Source: an uncultured Clostridium sp. (GTDB lineage: Bacteria > Bacillota > Clostridia > TANB77 > CAG-508). Taken from it: 64,000 nucleotides of DNA. Where the stretch lies: positions 1,020-65,019 of the forward strand of contig CABPZP010000001.1 of assembly GCA_902461935.1 (NCBI GenBank), read 5' to 3'. Position numbers and translations under genes: made by a program. The stretch's first letter is position 1, and every line of letters starts with the position of its first letter. Positions 2,431 to 60,062 of this stretch are shown here, in pieces. Below the pieces are notes generated by a model, which was not told the origin of the DNA, searched no databases, and worked only from the letters and a program-made list of their open reading frames with translations.

Positions 2431-2526
2431 GGGCATACAGAAGTGTCTGCCCCAACAATGTTTAAGATTATTTTTATTAATTTTTTCGGGTCGCCGGGGA
2501 CGTCGACCCCTACAACGTTTGACATT
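2431..2526 (+). repeat. Two tandem family-A REP-like elements (a degenerate copy at 2431-2466 and a canonical copy at 2487-2526) inside the spoIIAA-spoIIAB spacer
   Basis: cgggtcgccggggacgtcgacccCTACAACGTTTGACATT; near-palindrome plus conserved tail. Confidence 0.8.
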
Positions 2527-2537
2527 ATTTTTTATAA

Positions 2538-2760
2538 CATAATAAATATATTTGTTTTGAAATACCGCGTAAGCGACCAAACGAGCAGACTTTCTGCGAG
2601 TGCGATTTGGAGCAATCTTCCTTTTTTTAATTTATATTTTAGCTATGTAAATATATAAAATAATTTTATATAAAATTAATTCTGTGCTAAATGGTCTATT
2701 GACCATTTTCAAATCCGAAGATTGCGACACCAAGGTATAAAAAACAATATATTTATTATG
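2538..2760. mobile_element. Family-B MITE-like palindromic element, full copy 1
   Basis: TIR cataataaatatatttgttttgaaatacc / ggtataaaaaacaatatatttattatg; internal gcaatcttc/gaagattgc subterminal inverted repeat; aatggtctattgaccatt hairpin. Confidence 0.75.
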
Positions 2761-2788
2761 TTTATTATTTTATATTGACATTTTTTTA

Positions 2789-5240: not shown

Positions 5241-5352
5241 GGGGTCGCACTAAGAACGACGACCCCTACAGCGTCTGATATGATATTTTATAAAAAACAA
5301 TTTATTTGTCATTTTATATTATCGGGTCGTCGAGGACGCCGACCCCTACAAC
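5241..5352 (+). repeat. Two family-A elements (5241-5279, with a 12-nt insert in the hairpin, and 5324-5352) between convergent asnB and tdk
   Basis: ggggtcgcactaagaacgacgacccCTACAGCGTCTGAT and cgggtcgtcgaggacgccgacccCTACAAC. Confidence 0.75.
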
Positions 5353-18381: not shown

Positions 18382-18547
18382 CTTTTTTTTAGTATCAAAT
18401 TTCGCATTTTTGTATATTATATATTATAAGAATATTATTTGTTTTTAATTTCTTTTTGTGTTGTTTTCAATGATGCAAAAAGTTTATATAGATTTTCCGG
18501 TGCTTTGCACCGGATTTTGAATTTTGTAAAAAAATTTTCAGTTTTAT

Positions 18548-18774
18548 TAAATTATATTATATATTGTTTTGAAATACCGCGTAAGCGACCAAACGAGCAA
18601 ATATTTTTGCGAGTGCGATTTGGAGCAATCTTCCTTTTATATTATAGTAATTTTCTATTTTTATTGTAGTGGTCGACGCCTCTGTCGACCAGCATATAAA
18701 ATGCTCAATAGACCATTTTTAGTCCGAAGATTGCGACACCAAGGTATAAAAAACAATATATAATATAATTTTAA
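18548..18774. mobile_element. Family-B MITE-like element, full copy 2, with a reverse-oriented family-A hairpin (18664-18690) in its centre
   Basis: TIR ttaaattatattatatattgttttgaaatacc / ggtataaaaaacaatatataatataattttaa; central ttgtagtggtcgacgcctctgtcgacc. Confidence 0.75.
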
Positions 18775-26244: not shown

Positions 26245-27294
26245 TTAGTCCACATCCTTTCTATCAAATTGACTTAAAAATCTTACATCGTTTGCATATA
26301 AATATCTCATATCTGGTATTCCATATTTAAACATTGCTAGTCTATCTATTCCTGTTCCAAATGCAAATCCTCCAAATTTTTCTGGGTCATAGCCATTTAT
26401 TTTTAATACATTTGGATGAACCATTCCACATCCTAATACTTCAATCCAACCTGTTTGTTTACATAGGTTACATCCTTTTCCTCCACATTTAAAGCAAGAT
26501 ACATCTACTTCATAAGATGGTTCTGTAAATGGGAAATAACTTGGTCTAAAACGTAATTCACTATTCTTTCCTATTACTTTTCTAACAAATACTTCTAGTG
26601 TTCCTTTTAAGTCTGCTAAAGAAACATTATTTTCTTTGTAATCTATTACTAATCCTTCTACTTGCCCAAATTGATGTGAATGTGTTGCATCGTCTTCTCT
26701 TCTATATGTTTTTCCAGCTGTTAGTTCTCTTATTGGTGTTTTTTCCGTATTTGCCATCATTGTTCTTGCTTGCACTGCAGAGGTTTGTGTTCTTAATAAA
26801 TATTCATCTGTAATGTAAAAACTATCTTGCATATCTCTTGCTGGATGTCCTTTTGGTAAGTTTAATCTTTCAAAGCAATATTCATCTGTTTCCAATTCTG
26901 GTCCACTGCATACATCATATCCCATTGATACAAATAAGTCCTCTATTTCTTCTATTATTCTGTTTACAGGATGTTTACTTCCTCTTTTTACTTTTGTTGC
27001 TGGTAAAGTTATATCTATTTTTTCTTGTTCTAATTTTTTATTTATTTCTGCTTTTTTAAATTCTTCTTCTCTTACATCTATTAAATTTTCTAATTCAGCT
27101 TTTACAACATTTACTAAGCTTCCTATAACAGGTCTTTCTTCTGCACTTAAATCTTTCATTCCTCTTAAAATGGCTGTTAATTCACCTTTTTTTCCTAAGT
27201 ATTTAACTCTAGCATTATTTAACTCTGTAATATCTTGTGCCTTACTAATTTCTGCTAATGCTGTTTCTTTCATTTTTGCAATTTGCTCTTTCAT
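26245..27294 (-). CDS. pheS: Phenylalanine--tRNA ligase alpha subunit
   Basis: 349 aa class II aaRS core; directly abuts pheT. Confidence 0.9.
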   Translation of the reverse strand: MKEQIAKMKETALAEISKAQDITELNNARVKYLGKKGELTAILRGMKDLSAEERPVIGSLVNVVKAELENLIDVREEEFKKAEINKKLEQEKIDITLPATKVKRGSKHPVNRIIEEIEDLFVSMGYDVCSGPELETDEYCFERLNLPKGHPARDMQDSFYITDEYLLRTQTSAVQARTMMANTEKTPIRELTAGKTYRREDDATHSHQFGQVEGLVIDYKENNVSLADLKGTLEVFVRKVIGKNSELRFRPSYFPFTEPSYEVDVSCFKCGGKGCNLCKQTGWIEVLGCGMVHPNVLKINGYDPEKFGGFAFGTGIDRLAMFKYGIPDMRYLYANDVRFLSQFDRKDVD

Positions 27295-27299
27295 AGTTT

Positions 27300-27600
27300 C
27301 CTCCTTTAAATTTTATTTATATAAATTTATTTTTATATAAAAATAAAAGAATCATCCCTTGCATAGGACGATTCTTTTACCCGTGTTACCACCTAAATTC
27401 ATTGAACTATTTTTAATTCAACCTCATTTGCTATATCGTTGCAACCGTTTTTCCCTACTATTATTTCAAGAAAAAACCTCAAAAGTGAAATTTCTATAAA
27501 CCTTATTTTAGTAAACTTTCAGCCACGATTTACTTTCTCTTTAAAAATAATTATTGTTTATATACTTTGCTTTTTCATCGGCTTTATTCAATTTTATTTT
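27300..27600 (-). promoter_or_regulatory. T-box riboswitch leader of pheST
   Basis: On the minus strand: AGAGA-type stem I, T-box sequence AATTTAGGTGGTAACACGGG (plus strand 27381-27400), then a terminator hairpin with U-run (27340-27380) just upstream of the pheS RBS. Confidence 0.6.
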
Positions 27601-29600: not shown

Positions 29601-29666
29601 TCTTTTATTTCCTTTCTGTTTATAAATAATTTTTTATATATAATTATAAAAAATTTAAAAGTAATT

Positions 29667-29809
29667 GCATGCTAAATGGTCTATTGACCATTTTCAATTT
29701 CGAAGATTGCGACACCAAGGTATAAAAAACAATTTATTTCTCATTTGGTAATTTAAAAAAATTTAGCGAGTCGCCCTAAGGACGCCGCCCCCCTACAATG
29801 TCTGACATT
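29667..29809 (+). repeat. Right-half family-B copy (29667-29740) followed by a family-A element (29766-29809)
   Basis: gctaaatggtctattgaccatt..cgaagattgcgacaccaaggtataaaaaacaat then agcgagtcgccctaaggacgccgccCCCCTACAATGTCTGACATT. Confidence 0.75.
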
Positions 29810-31996: not shown

Positions 31997-32015
31997 GGCT
32001 ACTAATAGTCGCCCC
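31997..32015 (+). repeat. Degenerate family-A remnant just downstream of the DUF1294 gene
   Basis: gtcgcCCCCTACATATTT. Confidence 0.4.
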
Positions 32016-32023
32016 CTACATAT

Positions 32024-32338: not shown

Positions 32339-32660
32339 GGCGGACAGAGGCGTCCGCCCCTACATTTTATTTTATGAACAATTCAAATTTGTCTAAAGAC
32401 AAAATAATAATTAAGATTAAATTTCGCGAAGCAAGTGGGGACCTTTCCGGCATTCTTCAAAATTCTTTTGAATTTTGTTAGAAGGGCGTGAATGGGGAGC
32501 TTCGATGAAATTTTAGATTAATTCATTATTTTGGCTTATATCACATTTTTCATATTGCGGGTCGTCGGGACGCCGACCCCTACAACGTCTGGCATCATTT
32601 TTAATGTTGTTTTATTATATTCGGGCGGACAGAGGCGTCCGCCCCTACATTGTCTGACAC
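32339..32660 (+). repeat. Three family-A elements (32339-32368, 32568-32600, 32623-32660) downstream of polC
   Basis: ggcggacagaggcgtccgccCCTACATTTT; gcgggtcgtcgggacgccgacccCTACAACGTCTGGCAT; gggcggacagaggcgtccgccCCTACATTGTCTGACAC. Confidence 0.8.
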
Positions 32661-32685
32661 AATTTTCAAATACCATTTTATTAAT

Positions 32686-32911
32686 ATAATAACAAATATA
32701 TTTGTTTTGAAATGCCGCGTAAGCGACCAAACGAGCAGATTTCCTGTGAGTACGATTTGGAGCAATCTTCATTTTATTAATTTATATGTTTATAATGTAA
32801 ATATATAAATTAATTTTACAAAAATGTAATTATGTGCAAATGGTCAATAGGCCATTTTTTAATTCGAAGATTGCGACACCAAGGCATAAAAAACAATATA
32901 TTTGTCATTAT
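32686..32911. mobile_element. Family-B MITE-like element, full copy 3
   Basis: TIR ataataacaaatatatttgttttgaaatgcc / ggcataaaaaacaatatatttgtcattat (the atgcc/ggcat variant is mirrored in both arms). Confidence 0.75.
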
Positions 32912-32945
32912 AATTATTTTAATTACAGATAAATTACAATAACAT

Positions 32946-35900
32946 TTAAAATTCAAAGAAAGACATTTGATTACTTTGTGTCATTCCTTTTAAACATCCT
33001 GCATTTTTTAACATTTCTATTACAGATTTTCCTACTCCTGAACGTTGTTGCAAATCATCTATACACATAAATTTACCATCTTTTTTTGCTTTTTCTATCC
33101 CCTCTGCTGCAACTGTTCCAAGTCCTGGTATACTATTTAATGGTGGACGTATTCCGTCTTCTTCCATTACAAATTTGGTACTATGTGATTTATATAAATC
33201 CATTGGCAAGAAGTTTATTCCTCTTTCATACATTTCTAATACCAATTCTAATATTGCATACATGTTTTTTTCTTTTACTGTTGCTCCATTTCCTAGAAGG
33301 TCTATTTCTTTCATTTTGTTTTTTACTCTTTCTTCTCCATGGCACATTATATCACTATCAAACTCATCTGCTCTAATTGTAAAATATGCTGTGTAATACG
33401 CTTTTGGCTCGTGTACCTTAAACCATGCAATTCTGAAGGCATTTGTTACATATGCTGCAGCATGTGCCTTTGGGAACATATATTTTATTTTTTTACATGA
33501 ATCTATATACCAATCTGGTACATTATTATCTTTCATCATTTTCTCATATTCTGGCCACTTTGGCTCTTTTCCTTTTGCAACTTTTCCTTTACGTACAGCT
33601 TCCATTATTTTAAATGATGGTTGTGGTTCTAATCCTTTTTTTATTAGATATATCATAATATCGTCTCTACAACATATTGCTTCATCCAGTTTTATTGTTC
33701 CTGCTTCTATTAAGCTTTGAGCATTGTTAAGCCACACATCTGTACCATGAGAAAGTCCAGAAATACGAATAAGTTCATCAAATGTTGTTGGTTTTGTATC
33801 TACTAACATTCCGCCTTACAAATTTAGTTCCAAATTCTGGTATTCCAAAGCTTCCTACTTCTGAATGTATTTGATCCGGTGTAACTCCTAAAGCCTTTGT
33901 TGAACTAAATATAGACATTGTTTCTTTATCATCTAATGGTACTTTTGTAGGGTCTTTTCCTGTTATATCAAATAGCATTCTTATCATTGTTGGATCGTCG
34001 TGTCCTAGTATATCTAGTTTCAATAAGTTTTGATCTATTGAGTGATAGTCAAAGTGTGTTGTTATAATATCTGAATTTGGATCATCTGCAGGATGTTGCA
34101 CTGGTGTAAATTCATATATTTCTCTACCTTTTGGAACAACTATAATTCCTCCTGGGTGCTGTCCTGTTGTTCTTTTAATTCCAACACAACCTTTTGAAAC
34201 TCTATTTATTTCAGCACTACTTACAGGTATTTGTCTTTCTTCATAATATTTTTTTACATAACCATATGCAGTTTTCTCTGCTACTGTACCAACGGTTCCA
34301 GCTTTAAAAGTTGTTCCTTTTCCAAATATTACTTCTGTATATTTATGTGCTTTTGCTTGATATTCTCCAGAGAAGTTTAAGTCTATATCTGGCTCTTTAT
34401 CTCCATTAAATCCAAGGAATGTTTCAAAGGGTATATCCATTCCATCTTTATCTAACCTATGTCCACATTTTGGGCAATTTTTATCTGGTAAGTCGAATCC
34501 ATTTTTACATCCATAATCTGTAAAATCCGAATATTTACAATTTGGACATCTATAATGTGCTGGCAGAGAATTAACTTCTGTTATACCTGTCATATTTGCA
34601 ACAAATGATGAACCAACAGAACCTCTTGAACCAACTATATATCCATCTTCGTTTGACTTCCAAACTAATTTCTGTGCAATTATATACATAACGGAGAAAC
34701 CATTTTTTATAATTGAGTTTAATTCTTTATCTAGTCTTTCTTGCACTATTCCTGGTAATTGTTCTCCATATAATTCGTGAGCTTTACTATATGCTATATT
34801 TTTTATTTCATCTTCACAACCTGGTATGTGTGGAGGACATTTTTCTGGTGATATTGGGCTTATTCTTTCACACATATCACTTATTTTATTTGTATTTTTT
34901 ACAACAACCTCATATGCTTTTTCTGGTCCTAAATATTGAAATTCTTCAAGCATTTCATTTGTTGTTCTTAAGTATAAAGGTGCTTGTAAATCTGCATCTG
35001 CATATCCTTGCCCTGCCTCCAGAATTCTTCTATATATTTCATCTTGAGGGTCCATAAAGTGAACATCACAAGTTGCAACTACTAGTTTACCTAGTTTTTC
35101 TCCTAATTCTACTATTTTTCTGTTTATATCTCTTAATGCTTCATCGTCTGCAACTACACCATTTCTAACTAAAAAAGCATTGTTTCCTATTGGTTGAATT
35201 TCTAAGTAGTCATAGTCTCTTGCTATTTCTTCTATTTCTTCATCTGATTTTCCTTTTTCTATTGCTTGGTACAATTCTCCTGCTTCACAAGCACTTCCTA
35301 GTATAAGACCTTCTGAATATTTTTTATACAAACTTTTTAATATACGTGGTTTTCTATAAAAATAGTGTAAATGAGATAGTGAAACTAATTTATATAAATT
35401 TTTTAGTCCTACATAATTTTTTGCAAGTATTATAGCATGGTATGATGGTAATTTTTTATATGATTGTTTTTCAGCTTCCTTATCTGGTCCTACAATGTCT
35501 ATATCATCTATTGTTTTTGCACCTTTCTCTTTTAACATATCTATCATTACATTAAATACTTTAACTGTTGTATCAACATCATCTAAAGCTCTATGTGCTA
35601 CTTCAACTTTTATTCCTAAGTTTTCTGCAATTATTCCTAATTTATACTTTTTATAATCTGGAAATAGCATTTTTGCAAGTTTAAGTGTATCTAAATATGT
35701 ATTATTTAACTCATATCCTAATATCTTTGCATTGTGTTTTAAAAATCCAATATCGAAATCTGCATTATGTGCAACAAGCACAGAATCTCCAAAAAATTCT
35801 AAAACTTTTGGTAAAACTTGTTCTATTGTTTCTGCTTCTTTTACCATATCATCTGTAATATTTGTAACTTCTGTAACCTTTTCTGGTATATGCTTTTCCG

Positions 35901-37359
35901 GATTTACAAAACACGAAAATGTATCTATTACTTCTCCACATTTAATTTTCATTATTCCTATTTCTGTTATTTTTTCTGTTCTATATGAAAGTCCTGTTGT
36001 TTCTAAGTCAAATACACAATATGTTGTATCTATATCTTGTCCTTTAGAGAATGAAATTGTTGGAACTCTATCTGGTACTAAATATGCTTCAACTCCATAT
36101 ATAATTTTCATATCTTTGTTGTCTCTACCTAAAAGTTTATGTGCTTCTGGAAAGGCTTGCACAACTCCATGGTCTGTAATTGCAATAGATTTCATTCCCC
36201 ATTTCATAGCTCTTTTTATTAAATCTGTTGCAGATGTCATTGCATCCATTTGGCTCATTTGAGTATGCATATGTAGCTCTACTCTTTTTTCTTCCGCTAA
36301 ATCCATTCTTTCTTGTTTTTTTCTTCCTTGTGTTTCAATTATTGTATTCGCTATAACTCCGAGTTCTTTTGCAAATGGATCAAATTGTGCTGTTCCTTCT
36401 ATTTTTAATCCTTTTGCACTTTGTATTTTCTTTAATACTTCTGCTCCTCTTTCTCCCGGTACGAAAGCTTTACAAGTTATTGTACTTGTTCCATCATATA
36501 CATCAAACATAACAAGCCATTTACCACTTTTTAACTCTCTTGAATCTGTGTTTATTACTTCTCCTTCTAAACTTAGTTTTCCAGTATCTACTCCAATATC
36601 TTCTACTTTTACAAGTTCTTCTCTTATATTCATATTTCTTCCCAATATTAATGGTGTATTCTCTTCTGGCATTGATGGTGGTGGCGGAGCTGGAACATAA
36701 TCATTTTGAGAAACTTGTTTTGTTTCTTTTTCCTTTGATTTATTTTCATTTGGTTTATTATTTTGTTTTTTATGTATTTTATTTTCTTCATTTTTTTCAA
36801 TATCAATTGAAGTAGCAACTTTTTCTAATGCCATAATTTCTAAATGTTTTTTTCGTTGTTCTAAAATTTTCAAAGTTTCTTCAGAAATTCTTTCTATATA
36901 CGTTACTTTGTATTTTTTCATGTATAAACTTTCTATTAGTTTTTCTAACACTACATTTAATCCTCTAGCATTTAAAAAATCTGCACCTTTCATAGTTAAA
37001 TAAACCTTTAGTTTATTTTCTTCTAACTCTAATTTTGCATTAGCAAGTAATTGTCTTGCAATTGGATATTTTCTCGCAAGCAATGCCATTATATTTTTCC
37101 ACTCGTCTTCTATACTTGGAATTTTTGCATTTTCTCCATAATGCATATTTATCCAAGTGTGTTCAATTCTAAATCTTTCACTAACAAAGGCCTCAAATAT
37201 AGCAATAGCTTTAAGTTCAATAAATTCTTCTGATTCTAAATCTAATACTAATGTATTTTTTCTTTTGTATAACTTCATATTTAATATTTTTGCATTTTCT
37301 AAATTATCTTCAAATTTAAAATCTTTAAAAGTTTCTTTCATTGCTTTTATTGTTGCCAT
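32946..37359 (-). CDS. polC: DNA polymerase III PolC (Gram-positive type), split by an apparent single-base insertion near 33808-33816 into ORFs 33778..37359 and 32946..33809
   Basis: OB, exonuclease (DEDDh), PHP and polymerase core recognisable; the two ORFs join seamlessly as ..[33 protein letters not shown].. if one A is removed from cggAatg. Confidence 0.85.
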
Positions 37360-37490: not shown

Positions 37491-39671
37491 TTATGTATTT
37501 TCCCAGCTTAATATAGGATATCCATTATTTATTTTTGAATTTACAGTAAAATTATCCCATTTTAATTGTTTTATTTCTGTTTCACTTTTTACTGTTGTGC
37601 TTACTTTATCATTATCTATTCCACCTTTTATACAATCTTTTAATTGCCAACATGCTGTTACAGGAAACGTTCTTCCAGTAAATTTCATTCCGACAATTCC
37701 ACCAGTTTTTCCATTATAATTTCCAGTATTTTTATTATTAATGTCGCCTATATTATAGCAATATTTTATACTTCCACTATATACATAACCAATTATTCCA
37801 CCTATTGCTCTGTAATTTGAATCAACATTTCCAGTATTATATGAATATGAAATTGCAACATTTTCTCCTGTACAGCCAATTATCCCTCCCGTTCTAGAAT
37901 TATAAGAAGCATCGCATCCTTTTGAACATACATATGCAGTATTTACTGCTTGTTCTATTTTCCCACCCAATCTTAGGTAACCAGTTATTCCTCCTACATA
38001 ATTATTACCAATTATTTCTCCTGCATTTTTAACTTTTTTAAAACTAACAATATTAGTACCATCACCACTACAACCCGATATTCCTCCTACTTTTACTACA
38101 TTATTATTTATATTCGAATAATTTTCACATCCAATTATATTTCCTTTTCGTATCCATCCAACTATACCACCAATTCCATCATAACTTCCTGTTATTGTAC
38201 CATAATTTTTGCAATTTTCTATATTTCCACCATATTCTCCCATTCTACCTACAATTCCTCCTACTGAACTACTATTAGCACTTTGTGGTTCATCCGAATG
38301 ATGACCTATTGATTTTACATTCGCCTTGTTTACACAATTTTTTATATTTCCATAATTAACTCTTCCTGCAATTCCTCCTACATCATATGTTCCTATTATA
38401 TTGCCTTCTACAGCTAAATTTGCAACTTCTGCATATTCATTTTCTGTTCCATATACATATGAAAATAATCCTTGGTCGGAATTAGCTTGATTTATATTTA
38501 TACCTTCTATTTTATGCTCTTCCCCATCATATGTTCCTGAGAAATATTTTTGATAGCTTCCTATTGGTATCCAAGTAATATTATTTAAATTTATATCTGC
38601 TTTTTGTTTTATGATACAATTTTCAAATTTATTTCCGTTATTTACCTTATTTCTAAAATCCAACAACTGTGACTTATTCCATATTTCATAGCTATCAGAA
38701 TATGTTATATTTCCTATTGTTGTACTTCCTTTAGATTCTATATTTGTTACTTCTTTCCATTTTGCATATACTTCTATATTACTACTTACTTTTATAATTT
38801 TATCTCCAGTACCTTCAGGATTATTATACCAGCCTTCAATTATATATCCTCCTCTTGAAAACTTTGTTGTATCTAATGTTATTTCTTGATCTTTTAGTAC
38901 TATTTCTTCTAGTTTTTCTTCTGTTCCATCATTTTTATTATATACTATTTTATATTCGTTCTCTTCAGGATCTGCTTCAGCTTCATCTATATAAGTTACA
39001 TTTTTATTCTCATCAATTTTAAAATAATAACCTTTATATTTTATTATAAAAACTTTTTCTTCACTTTTTTCTTTAACTTCTAAATTTTCATCATTTTTTC
39101 TTAATGTATTCCATACATTTTCGTAATTAAACTTATTTCCTAAATTTTCTCCTGAATTTGCATTTGTTTCTTCTTCCATTATTGCTAATTGAATTTCCTC
39201 TTTTGCATTAGAGATATTCGTTTTTTGCATTGCTTGTTGTGCCTTTTTTATTATTCCATTTTCTCCCATTACCATATTTAGTGTTACACCGGCTAAAATT
39301 AATAGTACGATTATTGTTATTATTAAAGCTATTAAGGTGATCCCTAGATTATATTCTGCCATTTGTAAGGGTCGGCGTCCTCGACGACCCGATTTTCCAT
39401 CTTTTTTCATTTGTGGATAGATAGAATTATATTTTGAAGCATTATTTAACATTATTTTATCGGTATGTCTACTTTTTGCATTCGGGTCGTCGGGGACGCC
39501 GACCCCTACAGCGTTTAATTTTATTTGTTCAAATATTGCAATATTGTTTTTATTTATTATTTTTGCATCATAATTTGAGACATTTTCATAAATGTCCCTT
39601 TCACATATTTCATTATTTTTATTTAAAACACCGGTGTGTGTGTATATATACAGTTTCAACGCTTTCAGCAA
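37491..39671 (-). CDS. GLUG-motif repeat surface protein with prepilin-like hydrophobic N-terminal segment; start uncertain (39671, 39410 or 39362)
   Basis: Eight or more GGI(V/A)G..G.I.N(C/S)..N.G.(V/I) GLUG-type repeats; N-terminus ..GRRGRRPLQMAEYNLG-ITLIALIITIIVLLILAGV; the region upstream of the TM contains two family-A repeats in frame. Confidence 0.6.
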   Translation of the reverse strand: MLKALKLYIYTHTGVLNKNNEICERDIYENVSNYDAKIINKNNIAIFEQIKLNAVGVGVPDDPNAKSRHTDKIMLNNASKYNSIYPQMKKDGKSGRRGRRPLQMAEYNLGITLIALIITIIVLLILAGVTLNMVMGENGIIKKAQQAMQKTNISNAKEEIQLAIMEEETNANSGENLGNKFNYENVWNTLRKNDENLEVKEKSEEKVFIIKYKGYYFKIDENKNVTYIDEAEADPEENEYKIVYNKNDGTEEKLEEIVLKDQEITLDTTKFSRGGYIIEGWYNNPEGTGDKIIKVSSNIEVYAKWKEVTNIESKGSTTIGNITYSDSYEIWNKSQLLDFRNKVNNGNKFENCIIKQKADINLNNITWIPIGSYQKYFSGTYDGEEHKIEGININQANSDQGLFSYVYGTENEYAEVANLAVEGNIIGTYDVGGIAGRVNYGNIKNCVNKANVKSIGHHSDEPQSANSSSVGGIVGRMGEYGGNIENCKNYGTITGSYDGIGGIVGWIRKGNIIGCENYSNINNNVVKVGGISGCSGDGTNIVSFKKVKNAGEIIGNNYVGGITGYLRLGGKIEQAVNTAYVCSKGCDASYNSRTGGIIGCTGENVAISYSYNTGNVDSNYRAIGGIIGYVYSGSIKYCYNIGDINNKNTGNYNGKTGGIVGMKFTGRTFPVTACWQLKDCIKGGIDNDKVSTTVKSETEIKQLKWDNFTVNSKINNGYPILSWENT
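39355..39519. repeat. Inverted pair of family-A elements (reverse copy 39355-39391, forward copy 39483-39519) about 91 bp apart inside the 5' coding region of the GLUG gene
   Basis: ttctgccatttgtaa-gggtcggcgtcctcgacgaccc ... gggtcgtcggggacgccgaccc-CTACAGCGTTTAAT; tails point outward. Confidence 0.75.
39634..39650. repeat. Dinucleotide tract (GT)5(AT)3-4 in the 5' end of the GLUG gene
   Basis: ggtgtgtgtgtatatatac. Confidence 0.8.
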
Positions 39672-43892: not shown

Positions 43893-43980
43893 TTTTTCAC
43901 CTCAATTTATATCAATTATAATATATTAAATGTTCTTTTTTTTCAAGAATTTATTAAAATTATTTTTATTAATAAAATGA

Positions 43981-44096
43981 CAAATATATTTGTTTTGAAA
44001 TACCGCGTAAGCGACCAAACGAGCAAATATTATTCCAAATTTAACAATTTCATTATTTCGGGTCGTCGGGACGCCGGCCCCTACAACGTCTGACAT
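43981..44096 (+). repeat. Left-half family-B copy (43981-44031) followed by a family-A element (44059-44096) between the peptide-binding protein gene and spoVS
   Basis: caaatatatttgttttgaaataccgcgtaagcgaccaaacgagcaaatatt ... cgggtcgtcgggacgccggccCCTACAACGTCTGACAT. Confidence 0.75.
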
Positions 44097-49041: not shown

Positions 49042-49218
49042 TTGTAGGGGCGACATCTGGTCGCCTTTTATAATTTTATTATGATGATCAATAACAGTCG
49101 ATACATCTATGAAGTCGTTTTTTCTGGTCGTCGAGCATTTCGGAGTTGTTCGAACGTATGTGAGATTACAAATCCGTTATACCTTTAGGTACGCCGACCC
49201 CCTACAATGTTTGACATT
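49042..49218. repeat. Inverted pair of family-A elements upstream of ftsH: reverse copy 49042-49066 and forward copy 49125-49218 carrying a 60-nt insertion inside its hairpin
   Basis: attgtaggg-gcgacatctggtcgcc ... ctggtcgtcgag[60 nt]ggtacgccgacccCCTACAATGTTTGACATT. Confidence 0.7.
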
Positions 49219-51405: not shown

Positions 51406-51437
51406 TATCTCCTTGTATTGTTATATTTTTTATATTG

Positions 51438-51476
51438 CGGGTCGTCGGGACGCCGACCCCTACAACGTTTAACATT
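51438..51476 (+). repeat. Family-A element between alr and the sortase-substrate gene
   Basis: gcgggtcgtcgggacgccgacccCTACAACGTTTAACATT. Confidence 0.8.
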
Positions 51477-53746: not shown

Positions 53747-53785
53747 GCGGGCGGACAGAGACGTCCGCCCCTACATATTTGATAA
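53747..53785 (+). repeat. Family-A element in the spacer between the two transketolase subunit genes
   Basis: gcgggcggacagagacgtccgccCCTACATATTTGAT. Confidence 0.8.
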
Positions 53786-58058: not shown

Positions 58059-60062
58059 TTATTCTTCATCTGTTGCATTTACTGTAATTCCAGTATTTAG
58101 AGAAACTACAGGGCGTATACCTGAATAGACATTCATATAGTTTCCATAACTACTATGTCTATAACAACTCACAAATCCATTATACACCACACGAATTAAT
58201 TCATTCCCATTATATCCAACAGAGGGTGAAGCCAACCAATATCCACTTGTTGCATCACATTCTAATGTATATGGATAATATAATTTGTTTTTATATCCCT
58301 GTTTACTATTCATTGTGATAGAATTTGATGTCGGTTTTGATATTATTCCAATATAATATCCATTAATATCTGTATTATCACAATATAATTTTCCATCTAC
58401 ATTTTCATATAAATTGTTCCAACTAGCCATCCACATTTCTACTGTGGCTCCTCCTATTGCATATTCCGCTTTATTTTTACTATCTTTATAACAACTCCAA
58501 TTATTTGCATTTAGTAATGTTGATACACATTTTGAATTACTTTTTCCACTTTGCAATGCATATCCTGTTGCTTTAAATCTAGTTAATACTTCTGAGTTTA
58601 CTTCTTGGAATGCTGGTGCTGGATCCCAATATACTTTATACCCTGATTTTTTCATTCCTGTTTCTTTACTTATTCTATCTGTTTCTACTGTGTTTATATA
58701 ATCTCCTGTCATTAAAAATATATGTTCTCCATCTGAATAGAATATTTTCCAGTCATTTTGTCCGTTTTGTGATGTGTAATCTGTTACTTTTAGTCCATAG
58801 TATTTTGATGGCTCGTTTGCTACCATTTGTGCCGTTATTCCTGTATATGTTTTATATATTTTAATATTTTGTGTTGAACTTTGTTTTGTATTTCCAGCTT
58901 TATCGTATGCTATTGCATATATATTGTATGTTCCACTCTCTAGTTTTATTGGATTTGTTTCATGTTTTTGGTATTTATTCTCATCTTTTTTACTTACATA
59001 GTATTCTATTTTTTCTATTTCACTTTCTTCATCTTCTGCATTTACTGTTATTTTTAATCCTTCTTCTGTGTTTTCTGTTTTTTCTATTTCGCATTTTGTA
59101 GGTGCATTTGTATCTATATTTTTTATTTCTATTGTTTTGTTTGTTGTAGTTCCTTGATTATCTGTTACTTCATATTTGAATGTTGTATTTTGTGTTATAT
59201 TTTCTTTTGTTATTACATATTCTGTTTTTCCGCCTACGTCTATTTCTTCTTCGTTTTCTGGTTTTATTTTTGCTAGTCCATTATTGCTTTTTATTGTTAT
59301 ATTTACTTTTACTGGTCCTTTTGTCCAGCCTGTTGGTTCTATATTTGTTAGTATTCGTATTCCTGTTGATTTTTCTCCTATATGTGCTACATATTTTTCG
59401 TCTATTGTAAATTCGTATCCCTTGTAAATACCTTCTATTGTTTCACTTTCTTCTGCTGAAGTTATTTCTATATCATCTGTGTTTTGCAGTTCTTGTATTT
59501 TTTGTTTTAGATTTTTTCTTATTGTTTCTATATTAAATTCTAATCCACTTGTTGCTGAATCTGTTTGCATTTCTAATACACTCATTCTTAATTCTTCTTC
59601 GTATTGTGCTACTTCTGTTTTATTCTTTGCGCTGCTTGCTTTGGCAAACATTCCATTTTCTCCTATTACCATATTTAGGGTTATACCGGCAAGAATTAGT
59701 AGGACAATTATGGTAATTACCAATGCCACTAATGTGATTGCAGTATTTGAGGTTGGAAATTGGAGGTTAGATGTTGGAATGTTTGACGTTAATTTATTCA
59801 CTAATTTATGTTTTTCTTTCGGGTCGTCGGGGACGCCGACCCCTACAATGTTTGGTTTATGTTTTTCAAATGTTATAATATTATTTTTATTTTGTTTAAG
59901 GCGGACAGAGGCGTCCGCCCCTACAACGTTTGGATTGTGTTTGTCAAATTTAATATTATTTCTACTTTGATTTCGTTCTAGGCAGATATGAGCGTCCGCC
60001 CCTACAGTATTGAATATTTCTATATCACATTCATTGTTTGTTTGTTCATTTATTTTTTTCAT
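58059..60062 (-). CDS. Large surface protein: N-terminal three tandem 25-aa repeats (translated family-A elements), prepilin-like TM, Ig-like domains; paralog of 37491..39671
   Basis: Strong RBS aggagg-N6-ATG at 60062; ..NTAITLVALVITIIVLLILAGITLNMVIGENG.. then about 100 aa similar to the GLUG protein, then Ig-like (YAIAYDKAGN) domains. Confidence 0.65.
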   Translation of the reverse strand: MKKINEQTNNECDIEIFNTVGADAHICLERNQSRNNIKFDKHNPNVVGADASVRLKQNKNNIITFEKHKPNIVGVGVPDDPKEKHKLVNKLTSNIPTSNLQFPTSNTAITLVALVITIIVLLILAGITLNMVIGENGMFAKASSAKNKTEVAQYEEELRMSVLEMQTDSATSGLEFNIETIRKNLKQKIQELQNTDDIEITSAEESETIEGIYKGYEFTIDEKYVAHIGEKSTGIRILTNIEPTGWTKGPVKVNITIKSNNGLAKIKPENEEEIDVGGKTEYVITKENITQNTTFKYEVTDNQGTTTNKTIEIKNIDTNAPTKCEIEKTENTEEGLKITVNAEDEESEIEKIEYYVSKKDENKYQKHETNPIKLESGTYNIYAIAYDKAGNTKQSSTQNIKIYKTYTGITAQMVANEPSKYYGLKVTDYTSQNGQNDWKIFYSDGEHIFLMTGDYINTVETDRISKETGMKKSGYKVYWDPAPAFQEVNSEVLTRFKATGYALQSGKSNSKCVSTLLNANNWSCYKDSKNKAEYAIGGATVEMWMASWNNLYENVDGKLYCDNTDINGYYIGIISKPTSNSITMNSKQGYKNKLYYPYTLECDATSGYWLASPSVGYNGNELIRVVYNGFVSCYRHSSYGNYMNVYSGIRPVVSLNTGITVNATDEE
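59820..60012 (+). repeat. Three tandem family-A-containing units of about 75 bp (59820-59857, 59899-59934, 59972-60012) lying inside the coding sequence of 58059..60062
   Basis: cgggtcgtcggggacgccgacccCTACAATGTTTGG; ggcggacagaggcgtccgccCCTACAACGTTTGG; ggcagatatgagcgtccgccCCTACAGTATTGAAT. Confidence 0.8.

Follow-up and report, generated by a model that had tools for sequence, protein, structure and literature searches.

What are the long palindromes that lie between genes of an uncultured Clostridium: mobile elements, or copies of a structured RNA? The question was raised by a preliminary description of a 64-kb stretch of DNA (hereafter the window, meaning the whole stretch analyzed), in which these sequences, named family B, were presented as 225-bp MITE-like elements with mirrored, copy-specific inverted repeats and, alternatively, as a possible multi-copy structured small RNA.

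Copies of family B in the window

The window has a G+C content of 27.3%, and its genes, nearly all on the − strand, are Firmicute housekeeping and sporulation genes (spoIIAA, spoIIAB, SpoVS, PolC, MtaB, PheST, GlyRS). Alignment and repeat finding identified three full copies of family B, two half copies and one extra fragment, that is, six pieces in 64 kb. Exact matches to the left-core 21-mer GCGTAAGCGACCAAACGAGCA lie at 2567, 18579, 32717 and 44005, and those to the right-core 20-mer CGAAGATTGCGACACCAAGG at 2716, 18725, 29701 and 32865. All these matches are on the + strand, and dinucleotide shuffles expect none for either string. Hence, exact core matches, alignment and repeat families bear out the three full and two half copies reported earlier; the fragment at 5289-5314 had been overlooked.

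Nearly the entire element is palindromic, so that each strand is able to form a single long hairpin. The window copies measure 223-227 bp, and every full copy folds far better than shuffled sequence (for copy 1, z = -6.7 on the + strand and -5.8 on the - strand). The pieces, and the parts of copy 1, are listed below by window position.

2538..2762, + strand: family B copy 1, full, inside the spoIIAA-spoIIAB operon; the spoIIAA stop codon is 28 nt upstream
2538..2566, + strand: left arm of copy 1, made up of CATAATAAATATAT (outer and copy-specific), TTGTTTTG (conserved), a GAA internal loop and the inner P1 strand ATACC
2567..2574, + strand: P2 mini-hairpin GC-GTAA-GC of copy 1, invariant family-wide
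2581..2601, + strand: P3 module of copy 1, AC-GA-[GCAG ACTTT CTGC]-GA-GT, with a stem that varies yet keeps pairing and a tandem G·A closure
2608..2620, + strand: 5' side of P4 in copy 1, TG-GA-GCAATCTTC
2621..2716, + strand: AT-rich expansion of the P4 loop in copy 1, lineage-specific, containing the hairpin AATGGTC-TATT-GACCATT (2690-2707)
2717..2729, + strand: 3' side of P4 in copy 1, GAAGATTGC-GA-CA
2734..2762, + strand: right arm of copy 1, with GGTAT (pairing with ATACC), an AA loop, AAAACAA and then the mirrored ATATATTTATTATG
5289..5314, + strand: right-arm fragment TATAAAAAACAATTTATTTGTCATTT, between two REP units
18548..18772, + strand: family B copy 2, full; the rluD stop codon is 23 nt upstream
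18666..18692, + strand: reversed family-A (REP-like) insertion (GTAG + GC hairpin) within the P4 loop of copy 2
29653..29746, + strand: right-half copy, with the P4 loop hairpin, right core and right arm
32686..32912, + strand: family B copy 3, full; the PolC stop codon is 36 nt upstream, and some strains are without this copy
43964..44030, + strand: left-half copy, with the left arm, P2 and the start of P3, cut off in the P3 loop; other strains are without it

Three of these loci (copy 3 and both halves) showed presence or absence at the strain level, and their spacers range from 68 to 634 bp between strains of the window's species. In one strain, the right-half copy at 29653..29746 is missing, with a 109-bp gap bounded by the 10-bp direct repeat TAAATTTTTT. 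Overall, the strain comparison revealed mosaic spacers, with B copies gained or lost and with REP units and two other palindromic families brought in by swaps; no clean empty sites were seen.

Distribution of the family

One genome per prokaryotic species was scanned with an exact 19-mer of the core, GCGTAAGCGACCAAACGAG. It was found in at least 112 stretches from at least about 54 species-representative assemblies of uncultured gut Clostridia, among them Clostridium sp. CAG:440. The gut hosts of the positive Clostridia are human, rabbit, mouse (wild mouse), goat, sheep and chicken. Copy numbers are lower bounds, and among the matches listed one genome carries at least nine copies. A profile search, which rests only partly on the 19-mer probe, returned 13 further copies, each one or two positions off the 19-mer, the 19-mer being exact in 113 matches. 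Altogether 98 complete elements were recovered, all of them compact and without an ORF. In addition, a metagenome scan with the window-type right core CGAAGATTGCGACACCAAGG gave 38 stretches, corresponding to 18 distinct loci with complete elements (15 of the long window type, 3 short). BLAST searches of phage and plasmid collections and a scan of IMG/VR yielded no match, and an exact-string search of 8 million papers for the core strings found none. Family B is a previously undescribed repeat family, abundant in widespread uncultured gut Clostridia.

Termini, target duplications and mobility

The intact relatives are 177-340 bp long and have no ORF. When their symmetry was extended outward, two related types of inverted terminus were found, 5'-GTTAC(A/T)NTTCA(C/G)A... 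or 5'-TT(C/T)AAGTTTCGAC... Recognizable symmetric termini are present in 24 elements (GTTAC.../...GTAAC or TTCAAGTTTCGAC.../...GTCGAAACTTGAA). These are flanked by an 8-bp target-site duplication that is perfect in 11 of the 24 and carries one mismatch in 3, compared with 1/24 in a control shifted by 8 nt. By inspection of the sequences, several of the remaining terminus-bearing elements resemble boundary shifts of 1-2 nt. A second, independent scan detected exact flanking repeats of at least 7 bp in 7/98 elements versus 0.8% in shuffled pairings. Small elements without the B core, with other interiors, are bounded by the same termini. Only 2 of the 98 elements have both flanking genes in common with an element of another genome, and one pair sharing both flanking genes is in opposite orientation and belongs to different subfamilies.

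The MITE-like nature proposed in the preliminary description is therefore not only borne out but strengthened by the conserved inverted termini and 8-bp duplications of intact relatives in other genomes. Size, lack of an ORF, terminal inverted repeats (TIRs), the 8-bp duplication and dispersed, polymorphic copies are the defining properties of MITEs (PMC10969869), and they firmly place the family among them. Neither the window nor the examined loci around solo termini revealed an autonomous element or a transposase with the family termini; the genes there are housekeeping genes only (e.g. thymidine kinase, asparagine synthase, ClpB). Likewise, none of the 113 matches is an ORF-bearing variant with a gene in the P4 loop. 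IS6-family ends (GGTTCTGTTGCAAAG) were considered as kin of the termini and set aside, the agreement at only about 7/14 positions being unconvincing.

The size of 225 bp that first defined the family turned out to be atypical. The window copies bear an AT-rich expansion of ~100 nt in the P4 loop, specific to their lineage; in most other species this loop segment is 15-40 nt long. Correspondingly, the distance from left core to right arm is 173-175 nt in the window copies versus 87-148 nt in other genomes. The arms of the window copies are shorter and less perfect than those of the intact relatives. Canonical termini and clean target duplications were not found in the window copies, the best flanking repeats of the three full copies being 0-5 bp. 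Given this, together with the half copies and the REP unit within the P4 loop of copy 2, the window copies are older, decaying derivatives of the family.

Mirrored arms

As first described, each window copy has outer arms that mirror each other but are unlike those of the other copies, with 16-19 Watson-Crick pairs per copy. Copy 3, for instance, carries atGcc/ggCat where the other window copies have atAcc/ggTat. The proposal that the two arms co-evolve within a copy is strongly supported by the relatives and holds generally. Across the 98 elements, arm positions outside the internal loop comprise 2363 Watson-Crick, 18 G·T, 18 A·C and 32 other combinations, the arms extending from about 15 to more than 50 bp beyond the loop. 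In one subfamily of 8 copies, 16 of 44 arm columns vary. Relative to its consensus, 37 differences are mirrored and 3 affect one arm only, and 19 of the mirrored ones are transversions.

These mirrored changes without wobble bias point to arm-to-arm copying at the DNA level and not to RNA-type selection, because G·T and A·C are equally frequent and intermediates are nearly absent, unlike what is usual under selection on an RNA helix. Template switching in quasi-palindromes homogenizes and extends inverted-repeat arms and produces one-step, apparently compensatory substitutions (PMC8794818, PMC8604942, PMC5941160). It explains the homogenization of the arms, the compensatory changes made in one step, transversions included, and the growth of perfect stems. 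However, template switching is a mutational process, not an element, and leaves the conserved asymmetric core and the spread of copies unexplained. Long-term selection for pairing or hairpin integrity in master copies could also be a source of the mirrored pattern.

Do the arms belong to the element at all? At unrelated loci the same types of arm turn up again, and the target duplications lie outside them; therefore, the arms are part of the element and not of the target. This bears on the view that the mirrored flanks are foreign, a short core having inserted into pre-existing palindromes (terminators, REP pairs, other MITEs) or acting as an invertible switch. Such a view could draw on the copy-specificity of the flanks, on a symmetry that exceeds 100 nt in some copies and takes in other repeat motifs, and on the elements of other interior bounded by the same termini. 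Yet arms that recur at unrelated loci, inside the duplications, must travel with the core, and insertion into pre-existing palindromes is largely refuted and was rejected. As for the switch, contig L019 shows the opposite core orientation at the copy 2 locus. There, the right flank is the reverse complement of the contig's own left flank, and the inversion is a fold-back assembly artifact. An inverton, with both orientations between fixed flanks, was rejected as well, since this sole inverted allele is artifactual and no recombinase gene lies nearby in the window. We give next to no credence to either form of the foreign-flank view. Another contig, L174, carries arms from two different loci and is probably chimeric.

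A conserved asymmetric core

The tip of the element is an asymmetric, non-palindromic core of ~95 nt, predicted to form a four-way junction of inner P1, a GC-GTAA-GC mini-hairpin, P3 and P4. Its anatomy was derived from an alignment of 74 canonical copies, read along the top strand from 5' to 3'. The copy-specific outer arm is followed by the semi-conserved (A)TATATTATTTTT, an asymmetric internal loop (G-M-A opposite A-A), inner P1 (ACACY with RGTGT) and the invariant GCGTAAGCGACCAAACGAG that contains the mini-hairpin GC-GTAA-GC. Next come P3, a hairpin of 2-6 bp with variable sequence and the closure AC-GA...GA-GU, then GCGA(U)U, and P4, which reads UG-GA-GCAACC...GGUUGC-GA-CA and is variable in its distal part. 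P4 is followed by C(AC)AAG, inner P1 (right half), an A-run and, last, the outer arm in mirror image. P3 and P4 are each closed by A/C-G plus tandem G·A pairs. A pairing between TTGG and CCAA, proposed from the window copies, finds no support in the family, as most family members carry ACACAAGG there; the conserved pairing is UG-GA-[GCAAYC...GRUUGC]-GA-CA. A K-turn reading of the G·A motifs was discarded on inspection of the sequence, which has no 3-nt bulge: the motifs form symmetric internal loops of tandem G·A pairs.

The core is nearly invariant across the family and conserved far above the arms, although its conservation is somewhat overstated, since an exact core probe tilts the sample to conserved cores. 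A transposase that recognizes the termini would not, on its own, explain a center better conserved than the arms.

Paired cells make up 94.8% of the named core structure, which was also examined with RNAalifold. Covariation is found in P1i, P3 and P4. Both sides have changed in 108 core cells, whereas shuffles give 30±6 and slid controls no more than 50; template switching and the kinship of the copies confound this count. The compensatory changes noted earlier in the inner stem P3 of the window copies were confirmed (GCAG-ACTTT-CTGC, GCAAA-TATT-TTTGC, GCAG-ATTTC-CTGT). P3 positions comprise 241 Watson-Crick, 4 G·T and 0 A·C combinations, and in P4 G·T and A·C are roughly equal. The covariation in P1i, P3 and P4 is thus real. 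It does not establish the selection on a folded RNA argued for earlier, as the arms lack a wobble bias and DNA template switching can mimic such a signal.

The structural motifs are not shared by the two strands. A GNRA-type loop, tandem G·A closures and, within P3, GCGAAGC-like mini-hairpins are all on the top strand. Furthermore, folding predictions favor the top-strand core over the bottom one in 70/97 copies with RNA parameters (by 2 kcal/mol on average) and in 87/97 with DNA parameters.

Database searches returned no relative of this fold. At the gathering threshold, the only Rfam match in the window is a T-box located elsewhere. When E-values as high as 10 were allowed, only the generic noise of long hairpins appeared, both for a window copy and for a canonical one (MIR2619, 51.6 bits against a threshold of 113). 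Scans for promoters and terminators found nothing conserved and nothing above shuffled expectation. The initial statement that the element corresponds to no known riboswitch, ribozyme or IS end was upheld by the Rfam, literature-string, phage, plasmid and viral searches, none of which gave a match. We tentatively raise the possibility that the ~95-nt core represents a new class of functional, folded nucleic acid riding in, or driving, a transposon. As such, it could be a self-processing or protein-recruiting RNA, or a recognition module made of single-stranded DNA.

Orientation of the core

Where both neighboring genes point the same way, the top strand is antisense to them in 46 elements and sense in 16. 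It also lies on the C-rich strand in 75 cases versus 23, as judged by local GC skew, a measure in which replication and transcription are confounded in 8-kb loci. With symmetric termini, a transposase has no means of selecting the core orientation; the bias then arises after insertion or from a strand-specific step. In either case, the core is read by the cell in single-stranded form, as RNA or as DNA. The 3:1 orientation bias shows that this reading is strand-specific.

If the reading is of RNA, a structured RNA from the top (GCGTAAGCG) strand would be the functional product and the MITE a mere vehicle. The four-way junction would then be a ribozyme or a protein-binding RNA, and the long perfect P1 would serve as a double-stranded RNA handle, e.g. 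for RNase III processing. Several features are in keeping with this: the GNRA-type GUAA loop and two tandem G·A closures on one strand only, the covariation in P1i, P3 and P4, the better fold of the top-strand core under RNA parameters, the presence of G·T but not A·C in P3, and the conservation of the core far above the arms. The orientation bias would also fit a top-strand RNA that is harmful when embedded in mRNAs. But that strand is antisense to the surrounding genes in three quarters of the copies, the scans found no conserved promoter or terminator, and Rfam holds no matching family. Neither the arms nor P4 show a wobble bias, template switching can itself yield covariation (PMC8794818), and the DNA parameters, which favor the top strand in even more copies, make a single-stranded DNA fold fit equally well. 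An RNA product is thus, in our judgment, unlikely.

Alternatively, the host may have domesticated the element as a cis-acting part of its mRNAs (a 3' stabilizer, an RNase target, an attenuator or a terminator), in the manner of the transcript effects of Correia and ERIC sequences. Copies lie 20-60 nt downstream of stop codons, between co-directional genes, and copy 1, being inside the spoIIAA-spoIIAB operon, is therefore co-transcribed with it. The strong bias implies strand-specific consequences, and Correia and ERIC provide precedents (PMC10969869). On the other hand, sites differ between species, copies are gained and lost between strains, and no terminator-like signal was found in the scans. 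Moreover, the usual mRNA strand is the one without the GNRA and G·A motifs, and an effect on expression, as a by-product, would not account for the spread of the family. A domesticated mRNA element is accordingly an improbable account of family B.

REP-like neighbors

The − strand of family A reads ATGTCAGACGTTGTAG followed by a GC-rich hairpin (GTAG + GC hairpin), which is the REP pattern. There are 16 clear units in the window, all in one orientation. Those next to family B are:

2487..2525, + strand: family-A REP-like unit 12 nt left of copy 1; the - strand reads ATGTCAAACGTTGTAG + GC hairpin
29766..29808, + strand: family-A REP-like unit right of the right-half copy
32622..32661, + strand: family-A REP-like unit left of copy 3; a second unit is at 32558-32596
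44059..44096, + strand: family-A REP-like unit right of the left-half copy

Family A had been placed near the ends of family B at five of five loci. It flanks four of the five; at the fifth, copy 2, the family-A unit is internal, and the hairpin to the left of that copy (18497-18513) has another sequence. Of the 18 distinct loci with the CGAAGATTGCGACACCAAGG core type, 8 have a REP upstream of the left core and 2 have one downstream of the right core, in each case no more than 110 nt away; the REP orientation is the same throughout, never inverted. Other loci of this core type, and all other species, show no adjacency of REP and B. Thus, the composite or target relationship suggested for the two families has partial support only: the adjacency is real at part of the 18 loci but lineage-specific and absent elsewhere. 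The simplest reading is that REP and B both accumulate in the same permissive spacers under the same orientation constraint. The REP tail CTACAACGTCTGACA resembles the MITE terminus TTCAAGTTTCGAC when the sequences are compared, a likeness that may be due to chance.

The REP association and the orientation bias relative to replication would be explained if an HUH (Y1) enzyme mobilized family B as single-stranded DNA, the element being a REPIN-like doublet dependent on a RAYT or else a palindromic element derived from IS200/IS605. REP/REPIN units, which are mobilized by RAYTs, consist of a GTAG/GTGG tetranucleotide followed by a GC-rich imperfect palindrome and have no target duplication, and palindromic elements derived from IS200/IS605 have subterminal hairpins, with neither terminal inverted repeats nor a target duplication. 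The REPs upstream of the left core in 8/18 loci, in one orientation, the co-orientation of 16/16 REP units in the window, the likeness of CTACAACGTCTGACA to TTCAAGTTTCGAC and the hairpin fold of the element are all compatible with such a route. Y1 HUH transposition, however, is not known to produce target duplications or terminal inverted repeats, and the intact members of family B have both, the duplications being 8 bp long. In addition, the AT-rich B arms are without the unit of GTAG plus GC hairpin, and most species have no REP beside B. Mobilization by an HUH enzyme is hence very improbable. Family B was rejected as a member of REP/REPIN, given the lack of a GTAG/GTGG + GC-rich palindrome unit and the presence of 8-bp duplications, and as an IS200/IS605 derivative, given the TIRs and 8-bp duplications of its relatives.

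Comparison with known repeat families

Among prokaryotic MITEs, QMITE2 of Coxiella burnetii has direct repeats of 7-9 bp, TIRs of 23-29 bp and a core of 113-145 bp (PMC10969869). Like such elements, the present family is small, non-coding, AT-rich and intergenic, with many dispersed copies, TIRs, short target duplications (8 bp) and a long stem-loop in the transcript or single strand. Unlike them, it has a near-invariant center across at least about 54 species, and arms that, between the termini and this center, are hypervariable yet self-complementary. A further difference is that two related terminus types carry the same core, and no parent IS was found.

The Correia elements of Neisseria and the ERIC/IRU sequences of enterobacteria are palindromic intergenic repeats of 100-170 bp (PMC10969869, PMC2229807, PMC3184786). 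Co-transcription with neighbors, orientation-dependent effects and size variants created by internal insertion are features that family B shares with them, and, as for ERIC, the mobilizing enzyme is not known. However, family B occurs in a different phylum and has no sequence similarity to either group, neither of which has been described with a conserved, branched, non-palindromic core and hypervariable mirrored arms. Correia elements duplicate TA and have fixed 26-bp TIRs. As to the REP/REPIN sequences served by RAYT, family B is likewise hairpin-forming, abundant, intergenic and strongly orientation-biased, and is interleaved with REPs in the window; it differs from REPs in its AT-rich arms, 95-nt structured center, terminal inverted repeats and 8-bp target duplications.

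Discussion

Family B in the window is probably a local form of a large non-autonomous DNA transposon (MITE) family that occupies intergenic regions of AT-rich, spore-forming, uncultured gut Clostridia. In the mechanism that we propose, a DDE-type transposase acting in trans would make 8-bp staggered cuts and insert the element. One arm would repeatedly be copied from the other at the DNA level, by quasi-palindrome template switching or by hairpin repair, and selection would act only against loss of the hairpin. The core would be needed in cis, folded as a single strand, most likely as a module for recognition by a protein. We rank such a cis-acting recognition module first among the functions of the core, a structured RNA product second and a domesticated mRNA element third.

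As a new MITE family, these elements are notable for their reversed conservation, with an invariant branched center and hypervariable mirrored arms, and for a clear strand bias. Dozens of related copies constitute a large natural data set on the evolution of inverted repeats, in which the mirrored changes fit the prediction of template switching. The same arms warn against taking covariation of this kind as proof of selection at the RNA level. In practical terms, the hairpins of the family cause fold-back and chimeric contigs in metagenome assemblies (L019, L174), and the strain-level intergenic polymorphism that results from these elements could serve for strain typing.

For the cell, one copy of family B lies within the sporulation operon spoIIAA-spoIIAB. 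An asymmetric core conserved well beyond its arms, together with the 3:1 bias, means that one strand of this core is read by the cell. If the core acts as a single-stranded DNA module, the element would be captured as a hairpin by the mobilizing enzyme, and the sequence of the arms would be irrelevant beyond their complementarity. A core that functioned through its fold, as RNA or as single-stranded DNA, would represent a new class of motif.

Family-A repeats and the hairpin beside family-B copy 2

On sequence criteria, family A is a REP-like repeat. Read on the - strand in the window, it consists of (ATGTCAGACGT)TGTAG and, after it, a GC-rich hairpin that comes in two sequence types (GGGTCG.../GGGCGGAC...), and the exact TGTAGGGG heads are all on this strand (16/16). 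The presence or absence of family-A units varies from strain to strain.

Family-A sites (window positions)
2431-2466
2487-2525
5256-5289
5322-5351
29766-29808
32013-32020
32357-32364
32558-32596
32622-32661
39482-39520
44059-44096
49186-49216
51436-51474
53747-53775
59819-59847
59897-59925
59978-60006

By counting family A beside family-B MITEs in five of five loci, the preliminary description implied that the following hairpin belonged to family A; CCGGTGC-TTT-GCACCGG is not a family-A unit.

18497-18513, + strand: GC-rich hairpin CCGGTGC-TTT-GCACCGG, then a T-rich tract, left of family-B copy 2

Genes and palindromic spacers of the window

The genes spoIIAA, spoIIAB and sigF normally form one tight operon. 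Here, spoIIAA and spoIIAB are held apart by ~390 bp of repeats (2396-2788), made up of two REP units and family-B copy 1, and this insert must therefore be co-transcribed with the sporulation operon. PolC is called as two ORFs, of 1193 and 287 aa, that overlap by 32 nt. Several metagenome assemblies made independently (loci L005 and L007-L010) show the same division into two ORFs, which suggests that the frameshift or split gene is genuine and conserved, and not a sequencing error. The T-box leader ahead of pheS is an ordinary feature.

32946-33809, - strand: PolC, smaller ORF
33778-37359, - strand: PolC, larger ORF
27361-27587, - strand: T-box leader (Rfam RF00230, 100.2 bits), upstream of pheS (26245-27294)
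32403-32530, - strand: family C, AATAATGAATTAATCTAAAATTTC...GAAATTTAATCTTAATTATTATT, ~128 bp

Family C is a third palindromic repeat, carried at the PolC-DUF1294 spacer by some strains and absent from others. Outside the window, a fourth palindromic family sits in the same spacers at loci L011, L137 and L140.

Variants and assembly artefacts of family B

At three loci of the compared assemblies, family-B copies are internally deleted, with the 3' side of the variable stem P3 fused directly to GCGACAC, a pattern that could be explained by recombination between the core's repeated TGCGA motifs, or by slippage between them. In some copies, the mirror symmetry reaches 70-140 nt per side; at L052 and L094, it takes in repeated units (TTGCCACGGTTCCGGGTTTGGATGGCAAT), giving palindromes of >300 bp in total within large scaffolds.

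Internally deleted copies
L120:2553-2599 region
L129:4294-4390
L132:3635-3733

Copies with extended symmetry
L097:7402-7548 and flanks
L116
L106
L073
L064

Family-B hairpin elements also give rise to assembly artefacts. Contig L019 (2620-2925) is folded back through the element, so that its right flank repeats the left one in reverse complement. In L174, the right arm of copy 2 and the flank beside it are fused to a left arm that comes from a different locus.

Termini common to several small elements

The termini GTTAC...TTCAC(A/G)G, whose GTTAC... start is one of the two family-B terminus types, were also found on other small elements with unrelated interiors, at five loci.

Small elements with these termini
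L058:1-97
L088:3534-3614
L133:5200-5332
L037:6998-7150
L081:5722-5810

Since elements with unrelated interiors have these termini in common, the same putative transposase appears to serve several MITE families.
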